Shown: piece by piece, positions 2,745-59,972 of the stretch
How the letters are laid out: every line of letters begins with the position of its first letter
Numbering within the stretch: the stretch's first letter is position 1
Source: a virus
Virus record (IMG/VR): IMGVR_UViG_3300032294_002706
Span: 65,693-129,692 of that record
Length of the DNA: 64,000 nucleotides
Strand: one strand, 5' to 3'
The notes under the pieces: generated by a model
Seen by the model: only the letters and a program-made list of their open reading frames with translations
Told to the model about the DNA's origin: nothing
Database searches by the model: none
Made by a program: the position numbers and the translations under genes

Positions 2745-4736
2745 TTAGTTTTGTGCTCTTCTTTGGAGCATTTCAATGTAAGAATTAGAGTAGCCTCTTA
2801 GACTTTCATTGACTTGTTTTAACGAGACATAACCTTCTTTACCTTGGTTTTCGTTAATTGTTTGATTATTTATATTTGCTTGAGTAGCAATTCTTTCACT
2901 AATTCCTCTAAGATTACGTGAATCCCAGAAAGCTTTAACTTGGTATGGAGTGTTCAACGACATGTTGTTAGCTTGTGCTGAAATCCAATTTTTTTCACTG
3001 TCTGTCATGCTTTCGTATAGTTCTTTGTATTGAGCAGGCATGAATTTAACGTAGTTAGGAGTGTTTTCAACGTGCTTGTTAAGAACGGCTTCCATGATAT
3101 TAACTACTTCGTCTTCTGTGAAGAAGATAGCACCTCTCATTGTCTCAACGATTGCTGTTTTAGACGCTTGATCCAAGTTGTAAAATGCTTGTTTTCTAGC
3201 TTCGCTTAACAATTTTAAGAAAGGATATTTACCTTCCAATACTGCATTTGCTGTATTTGATTTGATATGTGTTAAGATACCGTCAACTGCATTAACTAAA
3301 TCATCAACTGATGAAGTTTCGGAGATTTCAAAATCAGCGCTTTCGTTTAATTTTTTAACCTCTCCCAATAGAGAACGAGTTTTAGCTGTTGCTCCAGGAA
3401 TCATTTTTTCATTTAAAGATTCAGCGATGTAGCTAGAATACTTGATACCTTTATCTAAGTTTTCTCCTAAATAGTTAGAATATTGAATTGTTGCATCAAG
3501 ATTCTCAGCTAAATAGTTAGAGAATTTAATTCCGTTCTCTGCGTGTTCTGCAACGTGCTCAGCATATTGAATGCTTAGATCAACGTTCTCAGCTAGGTAG
3601 TTTGCGTACTCTACTGTTTTTTCAACATTTTCTGCAACGTATTCAGCGTAGTTAGCTGTTTCATTTACTTTTTTACCTAAGTAATCAGAGTAAGCAATGT
3701 TCTTTTGAACTTTGTCTCCTAAGTAATCAGAGTAGTCAATTACGTTGTTTACTTTTTCTGCAACGTGTTCAGTGTAATTAACACTTTGATTCATCATTGT
3801 TGAAAGGTAGTTAGTATATTCAACTAGGCTTTCCATTTCGCCAGCTAAGTAGTTTACGTACTCAACCATTTTCGAAACTACTGGTGATTCATCAGTTGAA
3901 GCGTTTTCAGAGATCTTTTGAAGACCTTTATTGTTTTTAGAGATGCTCTCTTGTAAAGCTGAGAATTTCTTTTTAACCAATTCGGAGTATTGGTTCATCT
4001 CGTCTTTTGTTACAAACTCATTAGCCATTTGCTGTGTATTATTTTGTTTAGTTGGTGTTTCAGAATTATTTATTTTATAGATTCTCACAGAATCTTCAAA
4101 ATTGAAGTTTTCAGAAATATCCGTTAATTTATTGGTAATTGCAGTAGTCTTTAGATTATCTAAAGATTCAAAAATCGCTGAGAAACTGCCTTGTAAGCTT
4201 TCAGATACCTGAGATAGGGAAGCTTGTGAGAAACCTGGTTCAGCTACCAGATCGTAAGTGAATATCTTGTGTAGTTTAACCTTGCCGTTCTGATCAACAT
4301 TACCTGCTGCTCTAGAAGATACTGAGGTTGTACAGCCAGATTCAACCAAGGTCTTTGCGATCTTTCCGCATGGAGTATCAAGAAGGCGTAGTCTAATCTT
4401 TACGCTATTCGAACTTTCGTCGTATGTAAGATCTTCAATTACGTGAGATACGTTAGCTAAGGAAATATCGAATTTTTGTGGATGATCAAGTTCACCAAAG
4501 AGTCTGCGCTCTTCGATCTTCTTGTTTAAATACTGTAAGTGAGGTAAGTACTCGTTCTTTTCGTATACACGATTGTTTTCGTTTACGACTCCAAAAACGG
4601 CAGCAGTACCTTCAAGAATAACGTCACCGTTAGTTTCTTTAGTTACAGTAACGGCCTCGTTAATTCTTTCAATGATGAACACTGAATTTTCAGGAATAAC
4701 CGTTTGGTTTAGGTTAGCGATTTTAGTATTACTCAA
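2745..4736 (-). CDS. gp21: prohead protease (T4 gp21-like) fused to repeat-containing scaffold/core protein
   Basis: NENNRVY, GELDHP, VSH, LLDTPCG, VSSRAAG, YDLVAEPGF protease motifs; long coiled-coil C-terminal region. Confidence 0.9.
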   Translation of the reverse strand: MSNTKIANLNQTVIPENSVFIIERINEAVTVTKETNGDVILEGTAAVFGVVNENNRVYEKNEYLPHLQYLNKKIEERRLFGELDHPQKFDISLANVSHVIEDLTYDESSNSVKIRLRLLDTPCGKIAKTLVESGCTTSVSSRAAGNVDQNGKVKLHKIFTYDLVAEPGFSQASLSQVSESLQGSFSAIFESLDNLKTTAITNKLTDISENFNFEDSVRIYKINNSETPTKQNNTQQMANEFVTKDEMNQYSELVKKKFSALQESISKNNKGLQKISENASTDESPVVSKMVEYVNYLAGEMESLVEYTNYLSTMMNQSVNYTEHVAEKVNNVIDYSDYLGDKVQKNIAYSDYLGKKVNETANYAEYVAENVEKTVEYANYLAENVDLSIQYAEHVAEHAENGIKFSNYLAENLDATIQYSNYLGENLDKGIKYSSYIAESLNEKMIPGATAKTRSLLGEVKKLNESADFEISETSSVDDLVNAVDGILTHIKSNTANAVLEGKYPFLKLLSEARKQAFYNLDQASKTAIVETMRGAIFFTEDEVVNIMEAVLNKHVENTPNYVKFMPAQYKELYESMTDSEKNWISAQANNMSLNTPYQVKAFWDSRNLRGISERIATQANINNQTINENQGKEGYVSLKQVNESLRGYSNSYIEMLQRRAQN
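3408..3869 (-). repeat. 11 tandem 14-aa (42-nt) repeats in the scaffold region
   Basis: MVEYVNYLAGEMES / LVEYTNYLSTMMNQ / SVNYTEHVAEKVNN ... GIKYSSYIAESLNE. Confidence 0.85.
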
Positions 4737-51990: not shown

Positions 51991-52021
51991 ATTTTTATTT
52001 TACTTTTAGATCTACAATAGT

Positions 52022-52372
52022 TTAGTACTTCACGACCGTGACTCTAAGTCCGGCCTTTTTCGCTAGGTCGATCATGTGACCTGTGCCCTTGCTTTGACCG
52101 TCCCAGAAACAAATACATGAGTCTGCGTACTGGGCCATTTCAGCATTTCTCTTGAAGCCTGCTGATTTACCGAATCTTTCCCAATCTGCTGGAAATCTTT
52201 TAACCTGCAAACCCTTATCGATTGCATAGTGTTCTCCCAATAGATCGGCACCCTTGGCTCCACCTGACACAATTTCAACTTCTGAAACTCCATCAATTAG
52301 TTTACCGACTTCCTCGCACAGCAAGTCATATTTGGAGAAATTTCTGCCGCCTGCAATTATAAGTTTCATCAT
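52022..52372 (-). CDS. SLOG/YspA-like (DUF2493) protein
   Basis: IIAGGR.F, VSGGAKGAD, AG..RN..M, FWDGQSKGT..MI. Confidence 0.8.
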   Translation of the reverse strand: MMKLIIAGGRNFSKYDLLCEEVGKLIDGVSEVEIVSGGAKGADLLGEHYAIDKGLQVKRFPADWERFGKSAGFKRNAEMAQYADSCICFWDGQSKGTGHMIDLAKKAGLRVTVVKY

Positions 52373-52578
52373 TATTCTTTTATTAGTGGTTGAGGTAATT
52401 CGACTTCATTAAACGCTCGACAGATTCCAAAGTGGATCCATCGATTAATGAAATCGGTTGAATATTCATTGGCCTCAGTAATGACCTTTCCTTTGATTGG
52501 GTCAGATGATGCCTTAACAATTTTCTCCAGTCGTTTGCCGTCCGCAAACACAAGAATCATTCCTTTTTTCAGTTTCAT
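52372..52578 (-). CDS. hypothetical protein
   Basis: Short ORF; start uncertain. Confidence 0.35.
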   Translation of the reverse strand: MKLKKGMILVFADGKRLEKIVKASSDPIKGKVITEANEYSTDFINRWIHFGICRAFNEVELPQPLIKE

Positions 52579-52702
52579 TTGCATTGATGTTTTGTGATCC
52601 AATATACAATCTCCTAACTTTCTCTCCCAATTCCATGTCATTTGGAATAGTTTCGATAAGCTCGATAACCTTTTTGCCGAAGTTTTCGTCGATGTTGCTC
52701 AT
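52514..52702 (-). CDS. hypothetical protein
   Basis: 62-aa ORF with A-rich start context; PNDMELGEKVR. Confidence 0.45.
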   Translation of the reverse strand: MSNIDENFGKKVIELIETIPNDMELGEKVRRLYIGSQNINANETEKRNDSCVCGRQTTGENC

Positions 52703-52724
52703 AGTTTAATTATTATTTTATGCG

Positions 52725-52797
52725 TACCCCTGGAGAGATTCGAACTCCCATCTGACGATCCGTAGTCACCGATTCTAATCCATTGAACTACAGGGGC
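52725..52797 (-). tRNA. tRNA-Arg(ACG)
   Basis: GCCCCTG/CAGGGGT acceptor; CT-ACG-GA loop; GTTCGAAT. Confidence 0.9.
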
Positions 52798-52801
52798 AAA
52801 T

Positions 52802-52878
52802 TGGTGATCCCGACAAGATTCGAACTTGTAACCCCCAGCTTAGAAGGCTGGTGCTCTATCCAATTGAGCTACGGGACC
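52802..52878 (-). tRNA. tRNA-Arg(TCT)
   Basis: CCAGC-CT-TCT-AA-GCTGG; encoded CCA. Confidence 0.95.
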
Positions 52879-52905
52879 AGTTGTATTAGTTATTATACCA
52901 AAAAG

Positions 52906-52991
52906 CGGAGAGCGGAGGGATCGAACCTCATACGTTTTACCGTACGTCGCGCTTAGCAGGCGGACCCACTCGCCGTCGTGGATCACTCTCC
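52906..52991 (-). tRNA. tRNA-Ser(GCT)
   Basis: GGAGAGT/GCTCTCC acceptor; CT-GCT-AA; long variable arm; atypical D arm. Confidence 0.8.
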
Positions 52992-52996
52992 TTTTG

Positions 52997-53083
52997 TGCT
53001 TCTGGTCGGACTCGAACCGACACGGACCTTTCGGTCCAACAGATTTTAAGTCTGTCGCGTGCTACCAATTTCGCCACAGAAGC
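52997..53083 (-). tRNA. tRNA-Leu(TAA)
   Basis: ACAGA-CT-TAA-AA-TCTGT; long variable arm. Confidence 0.95.
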
Positions 53084-53088
53084 CTTCG

Positions 53089-53170
53089 TACCCAGAGTCG
53101 GACTCGAACCGACACGTCTTTCGACACTAGTTCCTAAGACTAGCGCGTCTACCAATTCCGCCATCTGGGC
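53089..53170 (-). tRNA. tRNA-Leu(TAG)
   Basis: CTAGT-CT-TAG-GA-ACTAG; long variable arm. Confidence 0.95.
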
Positions 53171-53173
53171 ATG

Positions 53174-53830
53174 TTACTTTTTAATGATTCTACCAGCTTT
53201 CCAGCCGATTGGAATTGCTTCGTTCTTCAATATTTTTTTATTTTCATGTTCATTAGTTATCCATATTTTTCCAAATTGGCTGTTTCTGGAACCTACCTGA
53301 TTTTGTGAATTTGCAATACCTATCTTTTTCTTAGTTTGTTCGTTATGCGATTTTCCAGTCCAATCATAAAATACTCCATGCGAACGTCTCCCTTCGGAAT
53401 ATGCTTTTTTGTTTCCGATTGATAAATTATTTGATCTATTTCTAGACCATTCATCATTTTGACGCAGCTCTTTCATTTTTAAATTTCCTCTAATTCCACG
53501 GCTTCTTTGGATTTCGGAGTTTTTATTATATGTCTCAAACCCTCCTTCTCCACCTATAACCAGATTCATACACATTGGATCAACTAATAAATTCTCATTC
53601 ACTATTTCCCTTTCTCTAAATTTCAAAGAACTTCGGTCAGTCAACCATTCCAATATTTCAATCGAATGATTTTTCTTTCCGTGTTTGTTTAAGGATCTTT
53701 TCAGAACCTTGCCGCTTCCGAAATACCCGTCATCTAAATTAGAAGTCGAGTGCATTCCGATGTAGTACTTTCCAGTTATATTACAAGTCACCTTGTAAAT
53801 GTAATGGTGAGTATGTTGTTTTCTTGGCAT
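53174..53830 (-). CDS. free-standing GIY-YIG homing endonuclease (Seg-like) inside the tRNA array
   Basis: YIYKVT...YYIG, YFGSG, GGEGG, GKSHNEQTKKKI (NUMOD3-like). Confidence 0.9.
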   Translation of the reverse strand: MPRKQHTHHYIYKVTCNITGKYYIGMHSTSNLDDGYFGSGKVLKRSLNKHGKKNHSIEILEWLTDRSSLKFREREIVNENLLVDPMCMNLVIGGEGGFETYNKNSEIQRSRGIRGNLKMKELRQNDEWSRNRSNNLSIGNKKAYSEGRRSHGVFYDWTGKSHNEQTKKKIGIANSQNQVGSRNSQFGKIWITNEHENKKILKNEAIPIGWKAGRIIKK

Positions 53831-53876
53831 TTTTGTCCTAGTCTTTTGATTTATTTATCTGAGACTAGGTACAAAA
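53831..53876 (-). promoter_or_regulatory. hairpin sequestering the endonuclease start region, with a late promoter in its loop
   Basis: TTTTGT(A)CCTAGTCT pairs with AGACTAGGACAAAA-ATG; GATAAATA (53852-53859) in the loop. Confidence 0.75.
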
Positions 53877-53886
53877 CTACCTCGTT

Positions 53887-53961
53887 GGTGACCGATGGGA
53901 ATCGAACCCACGACCTCTTGAACCACAATTAAGCGCTCTAACCAACTGAGCTACGGCCAAC
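53887..53961 (-). tRNA. tRNA-His(GTG)
   Basis: TAGCTCAGTTGGTTAGAGC D arm; TT-GTG-GT loop; GTTCGATTC; one mismatch each in acceptor and anticodon stems. Confidence 0.85.
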
Positions 53962-53962
53962 G

Positions 53963-54045
53963 CGGAAGAAGAGGGAATCGAACCCCCAAGGCTTTTACAC
54001 CCAGCTGTTTTCAAGACAGTTTCCTCGTCCATTCGGACTCCTTCC
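53963..54045 (-). tRNA. tRNA-Ser(TGA)
   Basis: CTGT-CT-TGA-AA-ACAG; long variable arm; G discriminator. Confidence 0.9.
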
Positions 54046-54054
54046 AATTTTTTG

Positions 54055-54124
54055 AGGTCAGTGTTGGAATCGAACCAACTCCGCAGATTTTGCAGACCTG
54101 CCGGCCTCCACGACCGAACTGACC
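54055..54124 (-). tRNA. tRNA-Cys(GCA)
   Basis: GGTCAGT/ACTGACC acceptor; U discriminator; CT-GCA-AA. Confidence 0.85.
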
Positions 54125-54161
54125 AAAAACAAAAAAGGCTTAAACGTTAGTCTAAGCCTTT
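54125..54161 (-). terminator. attenuator terminator immediately before the first tRNA
   Basis: AAAGGCTTAGAC-TAAC-GTTTAAGCCTTT followed by TTTGTTTTT. Confidence 0.85.
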
Positions 54162-54186
54162 ATCTGTAATAGTTCCTTACTTTACA

Positions 54187-54258
54187 TCACGGCTTAGACT
54201 TATCAAGACTTAGTCTTGACGAGCGTAAACAAAGTGAATGTAAAGATAGTGTTTTCAT
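54187..54258 (-). CDS. attenuator leader peptide MKTLSLHSLCLRSSRLSLDKSKP (not in ORF track)
   Basis: Codons 4-18 encode only Leu/Ser/His/Cys/Arg, matching the tRNA array; 3' end complementary to the terminator 5' arm. Confidence 0.85.
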   Translation of the reverse strand: MKTLSLHSLCLRSSRLSLDKSKP

Positions 54259-54264
54259 GCTAAT

Positions 54265-54301
54265 AATATACTATAAAAGTGTTATTCGGTTTTTATTTAT
54301 C
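54265..54301 (-). promoter_or_regulatory. promoters for the leader/tRNA transcript
   Basis: AAAC-N17-GTATATT (54265-54292) and GATAAATA (54294-54301); both motifs recur before other genes. Confidence 0.55.
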
Positions 54302-55072
54302 TTTTCTTTTTGCTAATTTTCTTTTAACTGCTTCTCTGGTTGATTCCATCTTCTTTGCATACGATGGATTCTTTCTCTTGTTGAAGTTGATTTGTTGGTT
54401 TAAGGAACCTGTGATCTTTTGCATGTTACCTCCTCTTGTTCTGATCAACCAGTCTGCGAGTTTCTGAACTCCAAGCTCTTTGAATTTACCCTTTGCATCG
54501 GGAGCATCACTGTGATGAAACTTAAGTTTCTTCTTTTCTGATACGTCATCATCCTCTTCTTCGTCATCCCACTGATCGTATGTGTCGGCTAGTGCATTAC
54601 CAATGATTTCCCTAATTTTATCGAAATATCGAACTTCTTGTAAACCGGAGATCGCATCCATTGCCAGCTCAATTTCTTCTGCGACCTCGTCTGTTTGCAT
54701 TGAACTAGGATCCCCATTTTGGAAAAACCAACCCCAATCCAGATCGTCTAGTTCGAACGTTTCCCACAGATCCATGTCCTTTTGACTGATGAACCCTTCT
54801 GCTTTAATCGTTGAAGCATTGAAGTCTATTGAAATCGTGATCTTATTCCAAAATTTTCGTGTAACATCCTGGTAATTTTCAGAATCTATTCCATAATCTT
54901 CAAGGTCCATGTCCCATTCTGACACAAGTTTAAGCACGTTACCTTCAACTGTGCCACCGACTCCTTTAGCCAATTGGTCAAGATCAATTGAGCTAAATCC
55001 CATTGACCTAAGCTCGGCGGAGTCGTCATCGCTTAAATTTTCAAGTACGAATTGTTTAAATGTCTTTACCAT
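54293..55072 (-). CDS. acidic protein with capsid-targeting-like motif and basic C-terminal domain
   Basis: MVKTFKQFVLE; ELRSMGF. Confidence 0.6.
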   Translation of the reverse strand: MVKTFKQFVLENLSDDDSAELRSMGFSSIDLDQLAKGVGGTVEGNVLKLVSEWDMDLEDYGIDSENYQDVTRKFWNKITISIDFNASTIKAEGFISQKDMDLWETFELDDLDWGWFFQNGDPSSMQTDEVAEEIELAMDAISGLQEVRYFDKIREIIGNALADTYDQWDDEEEDDDVSEKKKLKFHHSDAPDAKGKFKELGVQKLADWLIRTRGGNMQKITGSLNQQINFNKRKNPSYAKKMESTREAVKRKLAKRKDK

Positions 55073-55085
55073 AGTTTACTTATTT

Positions 55086-55658
55086 TTATCCAGGAAAGTG
55101 AGAGTATAAGGTGTCAACCTTTTCTTTGTAGTCCGGCGCGATTGTTATAAGCACGTCAGCCAGCAGTGAGTATAGAGAAACAAGTTCAGAGTACTCTCGA
55201 TATTCGCTAGTTGAGTTATCGTTTCTAAATAGTGCCATTACGTCAATCAATATTTCCTCAAGCAACTCATAAATTTTTTCAGCGTCAACCTTTGCCGCGA
55301 ATTCCTCATCGGATTCAACGTACTCAGATTCGGTCTTTAGATAATTATAGTAGTCTTTAGCCGAGTTCACTAGATTCTGTAGATCCGCTTGAGTATCTCT
55401 AACCTTGTGAGACTCAATCTCGCCCTTATCAATTTTAGTTAATGAGAATAACGGAACAGTTGCAACGTTCTCTTTTGAGTTGTGCAATTTTACCTTTGCA
55501 TATTCTCCAGTGATCGCAACCACTTCTCCCATTCCTCTGTAGGATTTTACTGAATCTCCAACCTCAATGCCGTTTGGGTTTGGATCCTCTTTTCTGTCAG
55601 GTTGATGAGATATTTCGAAGTCGTCTTCGAAGTCCTCAAATAGTTTAATGTATTTCAT
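55086..55658 (-). CDS. acidic protein with capsid-targeting-like motif and SH3-like domain
   Basis: MKYIKLFEDF; IEVGDSV...GEVVAI. Confidence 0.6.
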   Translation of the reverse strand: MKYIKLFEDFEDDFEISHQPDRKEDPNPNGIEVGDSVKSYRGMGEVVAITGEYAKVKLHNSKENVATVPLFSLTKIDKGEIESHKVRDTQADLQNLVNSAKDYYNYLKTESEYVESDEEFAAKVDAEKIYELLEEILIDVMALFRNDNSTSEYREYSELVSLYSLLADVLITIAPDYKEKVDTLYSHFPG

Positions 55659-57297: not shown

Positions 57298-57431
57298 TTA
57301 TTTATATTCGATGCGAATCCTGGACTTAAATTCCGGTGGAAATTGATCACCAGCTGACTTCATGAGATCAGCAAAGCATCCGTCCAAGAAATAGGTCACT
57401 GCCCAGTCTTCCGGAGTTCTAATAGATCGAC
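57298..57431 (-). pseudogene. displaced original 3' end of the DinG-like helicase gene
   Basis: Reads RSIRTPEDWAVTYFLDGCFADLMK...RIRIEYK*, a second version of the helicase C-terminus. Confidence 0.9.
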
Positions 57432-58193
57432 TTAACAATAAACCCAATCTATAAATTTTGGATTTAATAATCTAGCTCTAATTGTTGTAACTGGCATAGT
57501 TAATAGCTCTGACGCTTTGTGTAAACTTTCATACTCAATGCCACTTATTGATATTTTTCTTTTATTTGGACTGGGTCTACCTTTACTGGCTTTTCCTATA
57601 TTTTCTCTATGTTTATCTGAAAATGGTCCAGTCTTTTTACCTTTAAATCTATCCGACGTTAATTTTCGCCCTCTTTCTGATTTATTAAATAAAATTAATT
57701 TTTCAGTATTTTTAAGCCTAGCTTCTTTTTCTTTATTAGTATACCCACTAGCTTTCATTCTATCTTTTTTAGTAATTGCAGCTTTAACACCAACTGACTT
57801 TCTACTTTCAGGACTAATTTTTGAATTGTGAATTTTCATAAGTTCACAAAATTTAGGAGTGCGTTTCTTTCCAGTATTTTTAATTCTACGTTTTTCAATT
57901 ATTTCATCTCGATTAGGGTGGTTAGTTGTAGTATCACCGCCGGTTCCTCCGTCTGTTATATTATATCCACTGTGTTGAGATCCTAGTTCTTTTATCCAAA
58001 ATTTTTCTCTATTTGATAATTGCTCAAAGGTTTCACAAACTTCGAGTATTTCTTTCGTAAATGAAGAAATTCCATATTTATTAATTGCTTGCTTAATTAA
58101 TTTACCTGATCCGAAATAGTTTTTTTGATTTTTGACACTTTTACCGACATATATTTTACCATTTATTAAATTAGTTATTTTGTATATGACCAT
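57432..58193 (-). CDS. GIY-YIG homing endonuclease
   Basis: VIYKITN...IYVG, YFGSG, GYN..DGG; NUMOD3-like repeats; C-terminal HTH; AT-rich. Confidence 0.9.
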   Translation of the reverse strand: MVIYKITNLINGKIYVGKSVKNQKNYFGSGKLIKQAINKYGISSFTKEILEVCETFEQLSNREKFWIKELGSQHSGYNITDGGTGGDTTTNHPNRDEIIEKRRIKNTGKKRTPKFCELMKIHNSKISPESRKSVGVKAAITKKDRMKASGYTNKEKEARLKNTEKLILFNKSERGRKLTSDRFKGKKTGPFSDKHRENIGKASKGRPSPNKRKISISGIEYESLHKASELLTMPVTTIRARLLNPKFIDWVYC

Positions 58194-58235: not shown

Positions 58236-59972
58236 TTACCTATATACCACACGTAGCCGTTCTCTAAAATTTGATCCAGTTAACGCAGTTGGGTCTCTTA
58301 ATACATCAGCTAGACACCCATCTAAGAAATATGTTATAGCCCAATCATTTGGGGTTCGGATTGACCTACCAATTCCTTGAGCAATACTAACTTCGGTCTT
58401 CCAGTTATACCATTTTTGACTGTATTCCAATTTTGCAGCAACGTACTTATCACCAAGGTGAGGATACGGCACCTTTAGGAATATTTGGAATCTGCTGTGA
58501 TCATCGACCATGTTCAGACCCTCAAGAATTGACGGTCCCATTAGGACCATGCCCTTCTTTTTAATCATTTTCTTTAGTGCAAGTTCCTTTTCACCGGAAC
58601 CTTTATAGAGTAGAATGCGTTTCTTAACATCCTTGGGAAGGCCATTAAAAATCTTAGTATTCAATTCATAAGAACCGGAATGGATGATCCCAGAGTCCTC
58701 AGAGTGCTCACGAATGATTCTGGTTACCGTATCTATTGCCCATTGTAAATTGTCATTCAAGAATCGGGCTGACATTTTCTTACCTGGGTAAAAAATGATC
58801 GGTGACCGCTCCCAATTGAAGTTACTTTCAATCTTGAAGTACTTTGCTTTTTTGATTCCATGATTTCTCATGAAGTCTCCAGCTCCTCCCATTGTTGCAG
58901 TCATCAACAATTTGAACCCGAACTTCGTAAAGAAGTGTTTTTGTAATAAGTAGTACTCATCGATGCAGTTAAATGTGATCGATTTCTCTCCAGGATTCTT
59001 TACAAGCTTTTCAAGACCTACCTTGTCAATAATATCACAATAGTCTTCTAATTTACAGTGAACGTCCTTACACCAATCGGCTAGATTAAAAACTGCAAGC
59101 CATTCTAGCGGAAGGCTTTCATCAACGAACTCCTCTGCCGCGTTTTCTCTGATTTGTGAGGTTGACTTTACCAAGTCGGCTAGCAGCCTGGTCACTTCTC
59201 TAAGCAGTTTAAGTAGAGTTGAATGATCTTCGTGCTCGTAAATTAAATTGATTGCCTTTTCCAATCGCTTGAAGTCAACGGATGGCGGCCTTTGTCCAAT
59301 ATCTCCCAAACCTTCAACTAATTTTTGAGTTTTACCGACTATTTCAGTTGAAACGATTGGGCTGAAATGGCTCTGTACAATATCTAGGAGTTTGTGAGCC
59401 TCATCGCATATCACGAAATCTCTTTGTGGAAATGGTGATCCTCTACCCGTGCCTTGCTGCTGGGCCTCAACATAATTTCTTTGAATCAAGGCATACGGAT
59501 AGGTTAACAGAGCCACTGGAGATTTAATAGCCTTTTTGCGTGAAGTTAAGTAACCGCATTGCTTGAAACACGGCAAGGCTTCAGCAGCCTCATAGCTCGT
59601 TCCCTTGTTCTTGCACTCACCGACTGAGAATTTCTCACCATTCACCGCACACGTGTAATTATCAACACCCTTGATGTTGCCCCAATTCCAGAGCTGCATT
59701 TTACGAAAGTCCTTTACGTACTGTTCGTGCAAAGAAAGGTCAGAGGCTAAAATATAGCCTCGATTACCCTTGAATGCCAAAAAATCCGCGAATAACATTG
59801 CAATTACTGACTTACCTGAACCGGTTGGAGCATCAAGCAGATAGATTCCGTTTGGATCCTCCTCATAGGCTTCGATAATATCAAGAATTGCCTCTTGTTG
59901 TTGCGGTCTGAACTCCAATCCTGGGTGCTTGCCCTTCACGAACTGTTCAAACTCTGCTTTTAGTTTACCCAT
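58236..59972 (-). CDS. DinG/XPD-like SF2 helicase
   Basis: RPQQ, APTGSGKS, four Cys (Fe-S-like), DEAH, MTAT, LKVPYP, QGIGRSIR. Confidence 0.85.
   Translation of the reverse strand: MGKLKAEFEQFVKGKHPGLEFRPQQQEAILDIIEAYEEDPNGIYLLDAPTGSGKSVIAMLFADFLAFKGNRGYILASDLSLHEQYVKDFRKMQLWNWGNIKGVDNYTCAVNGEKFSVGECKNKGTSYEAAEALPCFKQCGYLTSRKKAIKSPVALLTYPYALIQRNYVEAQQQGTGRGSPFPQRDFVICDEAHKLLDIVQSHFSPIVSTEIVGKTQKLVEGLGDIGQRPPSVDFKRLEKAINLIYEHEDHSTLLKLLREVTRLLADLVKSTSQIRENAAEEFVDESLPLEWLAVFNLADWCKDVHCKLEDYCDIIDKVGLEKLVKNPGEKSITFNCIDEYYLLQKHFFTKFGFKLLMTATMGGAGDFMRNHGIKKAKYFKIESNFNWERSPIIFYPGKKMSARFLNDNLQWAIDTVTRIIREHSEDSGIIHSGSYELNTKIFNGLPKDVKKRILLYKGSGEKELALKKMIKKKGMVLMGPSILEGLNMVDDHSRFQIFLKVPYPHLGDKYVAAKLEYSQKWYNWKTEVSIAQGIGRSIRTPNDWAITYFLDGCLADVLRDPTALTGSNFRERLRVVYR

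Follow-up and report, generated by a model that had tools for sequence, protein, structure and literature searches.

Leader-peptide attenuators precede a number of bacterial amino-acid operons, among them those with the trp, his, leu and phe leaders, and some of them are multivalent, as in ilvGMEDA (Leu, Val and Ile) and thr (Thr and Ile). Phage tRNAs are usually discussed as constitutive codon-usage helpers or as spares against tRNA-cleaving defences, and to our knowledge the control of their expression is largely unknown. Here we analyse a 64,000-nucleotide stretch of viral DNA (positions 65,693 to 129,692 of the 129,692-base IMG/VR record IMGVR_UViG_3300032294_002706), referred to below as the window, in which a short open reading frame (ORF) and an intrinsic terminator stand directly ahead of an array of eight tRNA genes. 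We consider it probable, from the sequence, that this leader is a ribosome-mediated (leader-peptide) transcription attenuator of the trp/ilv type, placed ahead of a phage tRNA operon. All coordinates of leader and array are on the minus strand of the window. Literature searches of the main text of articles found no account of leader-peptide control of phage tRNA genes.

Comparison with described systems

The window leader has the parts of an ilvGMEDA- or thr-type attenuator: a short ORF rich in sensor codons, mutually exclusive pairings between four strands (1:2, 2:3 and 3:4), and an intrinsic terminator directly ahead of the first regulated gene. As in those systems, several amino acids would be sensed by one leader, and the position of the ribosome is proposed to decide which fold is formed; for pheL, the attenuation mechanism is set out in PMC3082878. 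Unlike the attenuators of amino-acid operons, the window leader precedes tRNAs, and not biosynthesis, transport or synthetase genes, and the product of the device would directly relieve the signal. Five amino acids, served by eight tRNAs, would be sensed in the window, and up to about 15 by sister leaders. The device also differs from enterobacterial attenuators in that it is phage-borne, is probably transcribed from a phage late promoter and has no Shine–Dalgarno site.

A T-box riboswitch senses uncharged tRNA by direct binding, works without an ORF and regulates genes of synthetases and of amino-acid pathways. The window leader resembles it in that a terminator/antiterminator decision is proposed to report the state of specific tRNAs, and differs from it in having an ORF, in being only 134 nt long and in giving no match to the T-box family of Rfam. 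A cmscan search of positions 52000–55500, with E values up to 10, placed neither a T-box (RF00230) nor any leader family on the leader; the best non-tRNA Rfam match there, to the trpB motif, scores 25.3 bits (E = 1.8), against a gathering score of 59.

The long tRNA array of the Anabaena sp. PCC 7120 trn operon is reported to be induced under translational stress (PMC8421152, PMC10272220). The likeness lies in a spare tRNA set that stays silent until decoding is impaired, as is proposed for the window, and in the homing endonuclease beside the array. The Anabaena array, by contrast, is cellular, and its control acts on the promoter by way of direct repeats and the TrcR repressor; no codon-matched ORF accompanies it, and the terms attenuat-, leader and terminator do not occur in PMC8421152. 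Caulobacter phage phiCbK (JX100813) carries annotated rho-independent terminators 12 to about 130 bases ahead of three tRNA blocks. A 45-aa 'hypothetical protein' ends 67 bases ahead of one of these terminators and draws 23 of 44 residues from the amino acids of its block (a hand count), and a Gln/Phe/Val/Ile-rich ORF ends 26 bases ahead of the terminator that precedes the Phe-Val-Ile-Ile-Val-Gln-Gln block. The phiCbK genome has no sequence relation to the window, a high G+C content and an alphaproteobacterial host, and the likeness is one of annotation and composition only. An attenuator-like leader at the Escherichia coli tRNA-Phe genes was considered as a precedent and discarded: the region upstream of MG1655 pheV is a promoter-like stretch with no ORF-plus-terminator unit.

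Codon content of the leader

The leader ORF occupies 54187–54258, with its ATG at 54258, and consists of 23 sense codons and an opal stop, codon for codon as in the preliminary description. The array behind it was likewise recovered as claimed: ARAGORN finds eight tRNAs only, with the anticodons given before, at 54124–52724, and on the whole 129,692-base record it still returns these eight (Cys, Ser, His, Leu, Leu, Ser, Arg and Arg). Relatives were collected as 16 IMG/VR loci through the 259-aa gene upstream of the leader, and further ones through DNA patterns. Leaders of the window type form five distinct variants in three lineages; every one of them lies directly ahead of tRNA-Cys, and length and frame are the same in all five. 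In one relative (L002) the upstream gene is kept (77% identity) and leader and tRNAs are both absent, and in another (L023) the upstream sequence is different and the leader is kept; the leader therefore travels with the array and not with the neighbouring gene.

Codons 4–18 are the sensor run. All 15 specify Leu, Ser, His, Cys or Arg, as had been noted, and thus belong to the set of amino acids carried by the array. Twelve of them are strictly cognate to array anticodons, rising to 15 of 15 if U34 also reads U, and none of the eight tRNAs lacks a strictly cognate leader codon, which bears out the earlier match of codons to tRNAs. For the window, L003 and L023, the number of in-set codons between codons 4 and 22 is reached by none of 20,000 dinucleotide-preserving shuffles each, and for L010 by 1 of 20,000. 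Among the 592 ATG-initiated ORFs of 18–40 codons in the 129,692-base record, the window leader has the highest in-set fraction and also the longest in-set run (15 codons; runner-up, 9). Judged by the shuffles and the record-wide comparison, the bias is not due to chance. It is also confined to one frame: across the leader variants, frame 0 has 16–17 in-set positions out of 24 and the other two frames 7–9 and 2–5, and frame 0 is free of internal stops in all five variants, with one to three in each other frame. The off-set codons of the window leader are 2, 3, 19, 20, 22 and 23.

Residues 1–7 are identical in all five variants, and at residues 8–22 Leu, Ser, Arg and Cys replace one another freely from lineage to lineage (pN/pS about 0.7–0.85). 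The peptide sequence thus diverges between lineages and its amino-acid composition stays, which fits a sensor, and not a working peptide. We regard it as highly improbable that the ORF is a functional 23-residue micro-protein with a terminator of its own and that its position ahead of the tRNAs is incidental. Exchanges of Leu, Ser, Arg and Cys would be radical for a folded or binding peptide, and the module always adjoins a tRNA array, being absent together with the array in L002 despite the kept upstream gene; what such a peptide would explain is the identity of residues 1–7, the fixed length and the well-conserved 12-residue core of the large-array leaders described below. We set dN/dS aside as a test of coding: the result is clear for the window against L003 (pS 0.36, pN 0.08) and not for the two deep lineages, where another frame scores lower than the leader frame.

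Covariation of leader and array

Pattern scans of IMG/VR gave 51 matches, from which 22 usable distinct leader ORFs were obtained. L018 and L168 were excluded as unrelated ORFs with no tRNA nearby, and L180 gave no ORF. The preliminary description had made the fate of its reading depend on whether homologous loci have the ORF and on whether leader codons vary together with array anticodons. The ORF is kept, and across the four leader types found among the IMG/VR relatives the content of the leader tracks that of the array. In these types, a homologous short ORF ends in codons that can pair with the 5′ arm of the terminator adjoining the first tRNA.

Relatives that share the same tRNA-Cys carry arrays of 16–25 tRNAs behind an ORF of 29–32 codons, again with a terminator adjoining the first tRNA. 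The first 10 or so codons of these large-array leaders resemble the window leader and are followed by 13–17 kinds of amino acid; within the 12-codon core of the type (codons 6–17), five codons vary, four of them synonymously only. In 12 of the 17 leader/array rows compared, the leader holds every amino-acid kind of its array, and four of the five exceptional rows counted distal tRNAs behind long gaps (ARAGORN missed some tRNAs, and two labels in this 17-row table were added by hand).

Three near-complete relatives (G003, G004 and G005) with the small Cys/Ser/His/Leu/Arg array have a second, large array 12–20 kb away, as revealed by a tRNA search of the whole records. In G004, which CheckV scores as 100% complete, the large array comprises 18 tRNAs for 15 amino acids, with none for Cys, Ser, His, Leu or Arg, and comes with a separate leader of 43 codons that starts with GTG, a separate terminator and a separate late-type promoter motif. 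The residues of the two G004 leaders divide according to the arrays: the small-array leader has 17 residues from the small-array set and 5 from the large-array set, and the large-array leader 6 and 36, respectively (Fisher p = 9.9e-7). The corresponding counts are 13 and 5 versus 3 and 32 in G005 (Fisher p = 3.9e-6) and 11 and 4 versus 3 and 26 in G003 (Fisher p = 4.5e-5). A further comparison concerns a single amino acid. G001 has no tRNA-Ile among 16 model matches and 15 ARAGORN calls, and the closely related G002 does have one. Of the six codon differences between the two leaders, four are synonymous, and the remaining two replace the only two Ile codons.

These data also bear on the idea, which we find unlikely, that the switch depends on the ribosome in the same way but reports overall translation capacity (for example ribosome availability, host shut-off or lost transcription–translation coupling late in infection) and not the shortage of particular tRNAs, with codon matching serving another end or arising as a by-product. 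No codon bias would be needed for that purpose, yet the small-array leader draws on five amino acids (0 of 20,000 shuffles), two leaders within one genome are complementary, and the only relative in which no tRNA-Ile was found has lost the two Ile codons. In its favour, all that matters for the structure is whether a ribosome gets to the ORF end in time, and the largest arrays have leaders built from nearly all amino acids, which would report almost any slowdown. The Anabaena tRNA array is reported to respond to general translational stress (PMC8421152, PMC10272220).

Within each of G004 (locus L181), G003 (L182) and G005 (L183), no amino acid is served by both arrays (5 or 4 kinds versus 15, 12 or 14), and a lone tRNA-Ser and a lone tRNA-Leu lie elsewhere in the genome. 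The record from which the window comes is some 48% complete, and its only array is the small one.

Mutually exclusive RNA helices

The terminator claimed earlier is the strongest match of the terminator scan. Its predicted hairpin (strands 3 and 4; 54134–54161) has 12 pairs, 4 of them G-C, and a 4-base loop, and is followed by a T-run (54125–54133) that ends one base ahead of tRNA-Cys. The T-run adjoins the first tRNA in all leader types. The T-run and tRNA-Cys leave no space between them in which a promoter could lie, so that transcription of the array has to pass through the terminator.

Upstream of the terminator, every single-sequence fold and the consensus fold contain a long leader hairpin in which nt 14–47 pair with nt 51–79. 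Its 5′ half, strand 1 (54212–54245), lies within codons 5–16, and its 3′ half, strand 2 (54180–54208), holds the stop codon and the core of the antiterminator; the strands were delimited by folds and pair counts. By these folds, the two halves are the classic 1:2 hairpin. Two extra helices had been put forward as separate pause or protector stems; both are real, and both prove to be parts of this one long hairpin. The antiterminator core (54191–54200, codons 20–23), in the last leader codons, is a perfect complement of the terminator 5′ arm (54200–54191 with 54158–54149), the 10 of 10 pairing of the preliminary description. Strand 2 can pair with strand 1 or with the terminator 5′ arm, and not with both. 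A spacer segment (54165–54173) can in addition pair with 54186–54179, lengthening the antiterminator; this pairing appears when the window transcript is folded without the terminator 3′ arm, and a comparable one, in another register, in L003, L010 and L023.

The five leader variants align without gaps over 151 columns. Across the 41 pairs of leader hairpin and terminator, 92.2% of cells are paired and 7 pairs have changed on both sides, and their covariation score is reached by none of 500 shuffles. In the wider terminator helix, of 15 pairs, 93% of cells are paired, and both sides have changed in 3 pairs. In the 2:3 helix, 8 core pairs are kept in all five variants, two of them through compensatory changes (U-A to C-G and C-G to U-A). 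At these positions, the terminator's own helix merely shifts a G-U pair, and the compensatory change in the leader is therefore not explained by the terminator. Overall, 90% of cells in the 2:3 helix are paired, compared with 6–56% in slid controls. The helices 1:2, 2:3 and 3:4 are thus mutually exclusive and are all kept in all five leader variants.

Conserved secondary structure of this strength would also be expected of a structured non-coding leader or small RNA, acting in processing, stability or target pairing, with an untranslated frame and tRNAs made by leaky read-through. Its invariant unpaired 5′ block resembles a seed region, the start and stop codons lie within invariant blocks that are structural as well, and in five variants without insertions or deletions an open frame is cheap to keep. 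Such an RNA would leave unexplained why the frame, and that frame specifically, is restricted to array amino acids in each lineage, why complementary arrays have complementary leaders, why variation in the large-array leaders is mostly synonymous and why the 2:3 pairing is conserved; no Rfam family matches it either, the best score of 25.3 bits comparing with a gathering score of 59. We therefore judge this explanation very unlikely.

Folding with a masked ribosome

A ribosome mask, extending from 15 nucleotides before to 12 after the A site, was placed at every codon and the RNA was then folded, for four variants (the window, L003, L010 and L023). With the A site at codons 2–15 and the terminator 3′ arm not yet made, the probability of the 2:3 helix, P(2:3), is at least 0.98 in all four variants; with the A site at codons 19–23, it is at most 0.04. 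The modelled switch point is thus at codons 18–19. Off-set codons flank this boundary, and the sensor run therefore ends about where stalling stops mattering in the model. For the large-array leader of G004, the model puts the switch at codon 34, and codons 8, 36, 37, 39, 40 and 43 are off-set.

The masked folds proposed in the preliminary description therefore fit a switch as far as the nascent transcript is concerned; the part that did not stand is equilibrium folding of the complete terminator, in which a switch occurs in one of the four variants only. We have dropped equilibrium folding as proof of the switch, as it fails in three of four variants, and this failure implies that the mechanism has to be kinetic. 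When no ribosome is present, the full leader favours 1:2 together with 3:4 (P 0.96–0.97).

The leader ends in Pro followed by the opal stop (54187–54192) in four of the five variants. A Pro–opal context terminates slowly, as in TnaC and pheL, and this leader end could hold the ribosome over strand 2.

Proposed mechanism

Upon the anatomy, its conservation, the base-pair covariation, the codon bias and the leader-codon/array covariation described above, we build the following model, in which translation of the ORF, termination at the hairpin, kinetic competition between helices, the direction of control and the physiological trigger are what we infer. Transcription would begin a short way upstream, at a phage promoter for which the late-type motif (54301–54294) is the likeliest candidate, and a ribosome would translate the 23-residue leader while the RNA polymerase is still on it. 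Fast decoding of codons 4–18 would bring the ribosome to the last codons and the stop, where it would cover strand 2 (54208–54180); the terminator 5′ arm would then pair with its own 3′ arm, and transcription would end one base ahead of tRNA-Cys. Should any one of the sensed tRNAs be scarce, uncharged or cut, the ribosome would stall in the sensor run, covering strand 1 and leaving strand 2 free. Free strand 2 would pair with the terminator 5′ arm (54200–54191 with 54158–54149), so that no terminator would form and the eight tRNA genes would be transcribed. The new tRNAs would relieve the stall, a negative feedback through which phage tRNA output would be set by demand.

Two readings of this feedback are equally good: counter-defence against anticodon nucleases, and plain matching of tRNA supply to demand. 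Only tentatively do we extend the model to giant phages at large, which may split their tRNA genes into separately gauged operons, each behind a codon-matched test gene, and so register for each codon set which host tRNAs fail and supply those alone. Were host anticodon nucleases or tRNA-depleting defences the usual cause of such failure, the circuit would be an inducible, self-limiting counter-defence made of nothing but RNA structure and the ribosome. If the attenuator model is true, the phage takes a direct reading of the decoding state of its host cell and tunes its tRNA output by feedback, and a textbook mechanism of amino-acid operons extends to a new class of target, the product of which closes the loop. 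The leader sequences would then be a readable record of which tRNAs each operon should replace, and conflicts over translation between uncultured viruses and their hosts would become accessible to computation. At about 135 nt the design is small, and it might serve again as a synthetic sensor for codon-specific decoding.

Evidence for and against attenuation

Attenuation, as first suggested in the preliminary description, is supported by the kept ORF, terminator and alternative pairing, by the covariation of leader and array and by the masking folds of the nascent transcript. A number of observations weigh against it, and the first of these come from the folds themselves. Once the terminator is complete, the antiterminator wins only in the window variant, with the A site at codons 9–12 (P 0.63–0.67), and at equilibrium it never wins in L003, L010 or L023. 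Moreover, without a ribosome the nascent transcript already favours 2:3 (P 0.55–0.92); in the model, termination requires that the ribosome finish the ORF in step with the polymerase, whichever untranslated default applies. As to the 2:3 helix, its covariation score is reached by 28 of 500 shuffles and its support consists of two covarying pairs, and the compensatory changes may be a single event; the leader type is found in three lineages only.

The correspondence between leader and array also has its exceptions. L010 and L023 keep 5 and 4 Ser codons, respectively, ahead of a small array without tRNA-Ser; both have a lone tRNA-Ser elsewhere in the genome. The large array of G003 has no tRNAs for Lys, Val or Asn, and its leader still has codons for them. 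The G001 contig is 52% complete, so a tRNA-Ile may be encoded beyond it. The composition test is powerless for the biggest arrays (binomial p 0.25–0.8).

Finally, parts of the array may escape the leader. The two internal promoter candidates of the preliminary description were both recovered. A late-promoter-like motif at 53858–53852, ahead of the GIY-YIG gene that lies within the array, could drive the five distal tRNAs without the leader. The second candidate, placed earlier at about 52891, is a −10-like box at 52892–52900, in the 26-base spacer ahead of the last two tRNAs; it is common to the window and L001 and, judged by sequence, may uncouple those two tRNAs from the leader.

The tRNA array and its inserted gene

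From the terminator onwards, the array consists of tRNA-Cys (54054–54124), a UCN-reading tRNA-Ser (53962–54045), tRNA-His (53886–53961), a CUN-reading tRNA-Leu (53088–53170), a UUR-reading tRNA-Leu (52996–53083), an AGY-reading tRNA-Ser (52905–52991), an AGR-reading tRNA-Arg (52802–52878) and a CGN-reading tRNA-Arg (52724–52797). Between tRNA-His and the first tRNA-Leu lies a GIY-YIG-like homing-endonuclease ORF of 218 aa (53174–53830, minus strand). The gap between these two tRNAs measures 715 bases in the window and 3 in the closest relative, L001, indicating that the GIY-YIG gene is a recent insertion that split the tRNA operon.

Promoter and start signals

The late-promoter-like motif of T4-late type (54294–54301) overlaps the stop codon of the upstream 259-aa gene and lies 35 bases ahead of the ATG. 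Some form of it is kept in all five variants, including L023, which has a different upstream gene, and it also occurs ahead of the big-array leaders of relatives. Of the 43 copies of its 7-base core in the whole record, 24 stand ahead of ORFs of 80 aa or more, within 60 nt of the ATG. On this evidence, the motif is most likely the promoter of leader and tRNA array.

An A/T-rich block (54259–54275) stands directly ahead of the ATG, with 15 of its 17 columns invariant in the five variants, and is unpaired in the consensus fold. It would be either a translation-initiation region or a −10-like box with the transcript starting at the ATG (a leaderless transcript). Its 13-base core was considered as a repeated phage promoter and rejected, as it gave 4 matches with up to two mismatches where 3.7 are expected. 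A Shine–Dalgarno-like word precedes only 5 of the 106 long ORFs of the record, the upstream regions of which are A-rich and G-poor; with such sites this rare in the phage, a leader start context that lacks one is normal. These start contexts, together with the helicase encoded in the window, the nearest named relatives of which are in Prevotella Lak phages (about 31% identity), suggest a host among the Bacteroidota.

In L029, L035, L037 and L042, the large-array leaders are preceded not by the late-type motif but by a match to the Bacteroidota −7 promoter consensus. This suggests that large arrays may be transcribed early by the host polymerase, and arrays of the window type by phage late transcription.

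The block ahead of the leader also occurs elsewhere. An unrelated 203-kb phage contig of higher G+C content (L018, 8560–8730) has the same 21-base block, including the start codon, ahead of a 43-residue Lys-rich ORF that is followed by no tRNA. A sigma-70-like −35/−10 pair there would put the transcript start at the ATG, possibly giving a leaderless mRNA.

Distribution and further observations

A pattern scan of metagenomes returned at least 120 stretches with a loose pattern; among the stretches listed, five passed a second motif filter, and three of these were true leaders, with no new variant among them. The lone tRNA-Leu found 5–6 kb upstream in relatives has no such leader. In blastn searches of cultured phages, the 2.1-kb region matched 898 records, over the tRNAs only and with none covering at least 80% of it, and a large-array leader had no match. 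In two riverine metatranscriptome runs, contigs of a relative span 54050–54199, that is, tRNA-Cys, the terminator and the 3′ part of the leader; contigs of this kind cannot show ends, strand or level and may reflect DNA carry-over, and we base no conclusion on them.

In two of the large arrays (L181, about 4000–4220, and L183, about 3775–3990), some 220 bases between a tRNA with a CAT anticodon and tRNA-Asp give no tRNA call. The stretch contains a tRNA-like T-arm sequence and G+C-rich structure, and could represent either a tRNA that carries a long insert or some other structured RNA. In G002 (L185, 3095–3179), a tRNA of Ser type is called by ARAGORN, and its anticodon, ACT, is unusual; a matching gap of 81–82 bases in G001 has no tRNA call.

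The window has a second GIY-YIG gene (57432–58193), which is followed by a 49-aa orphan frame (57298–57447, minus strand). This frame repeats the C-terminal end of the 578-aa helicase (58236–59972, minus strand) and looks like the duplicated target-site remnant of an endonuclease invasion.

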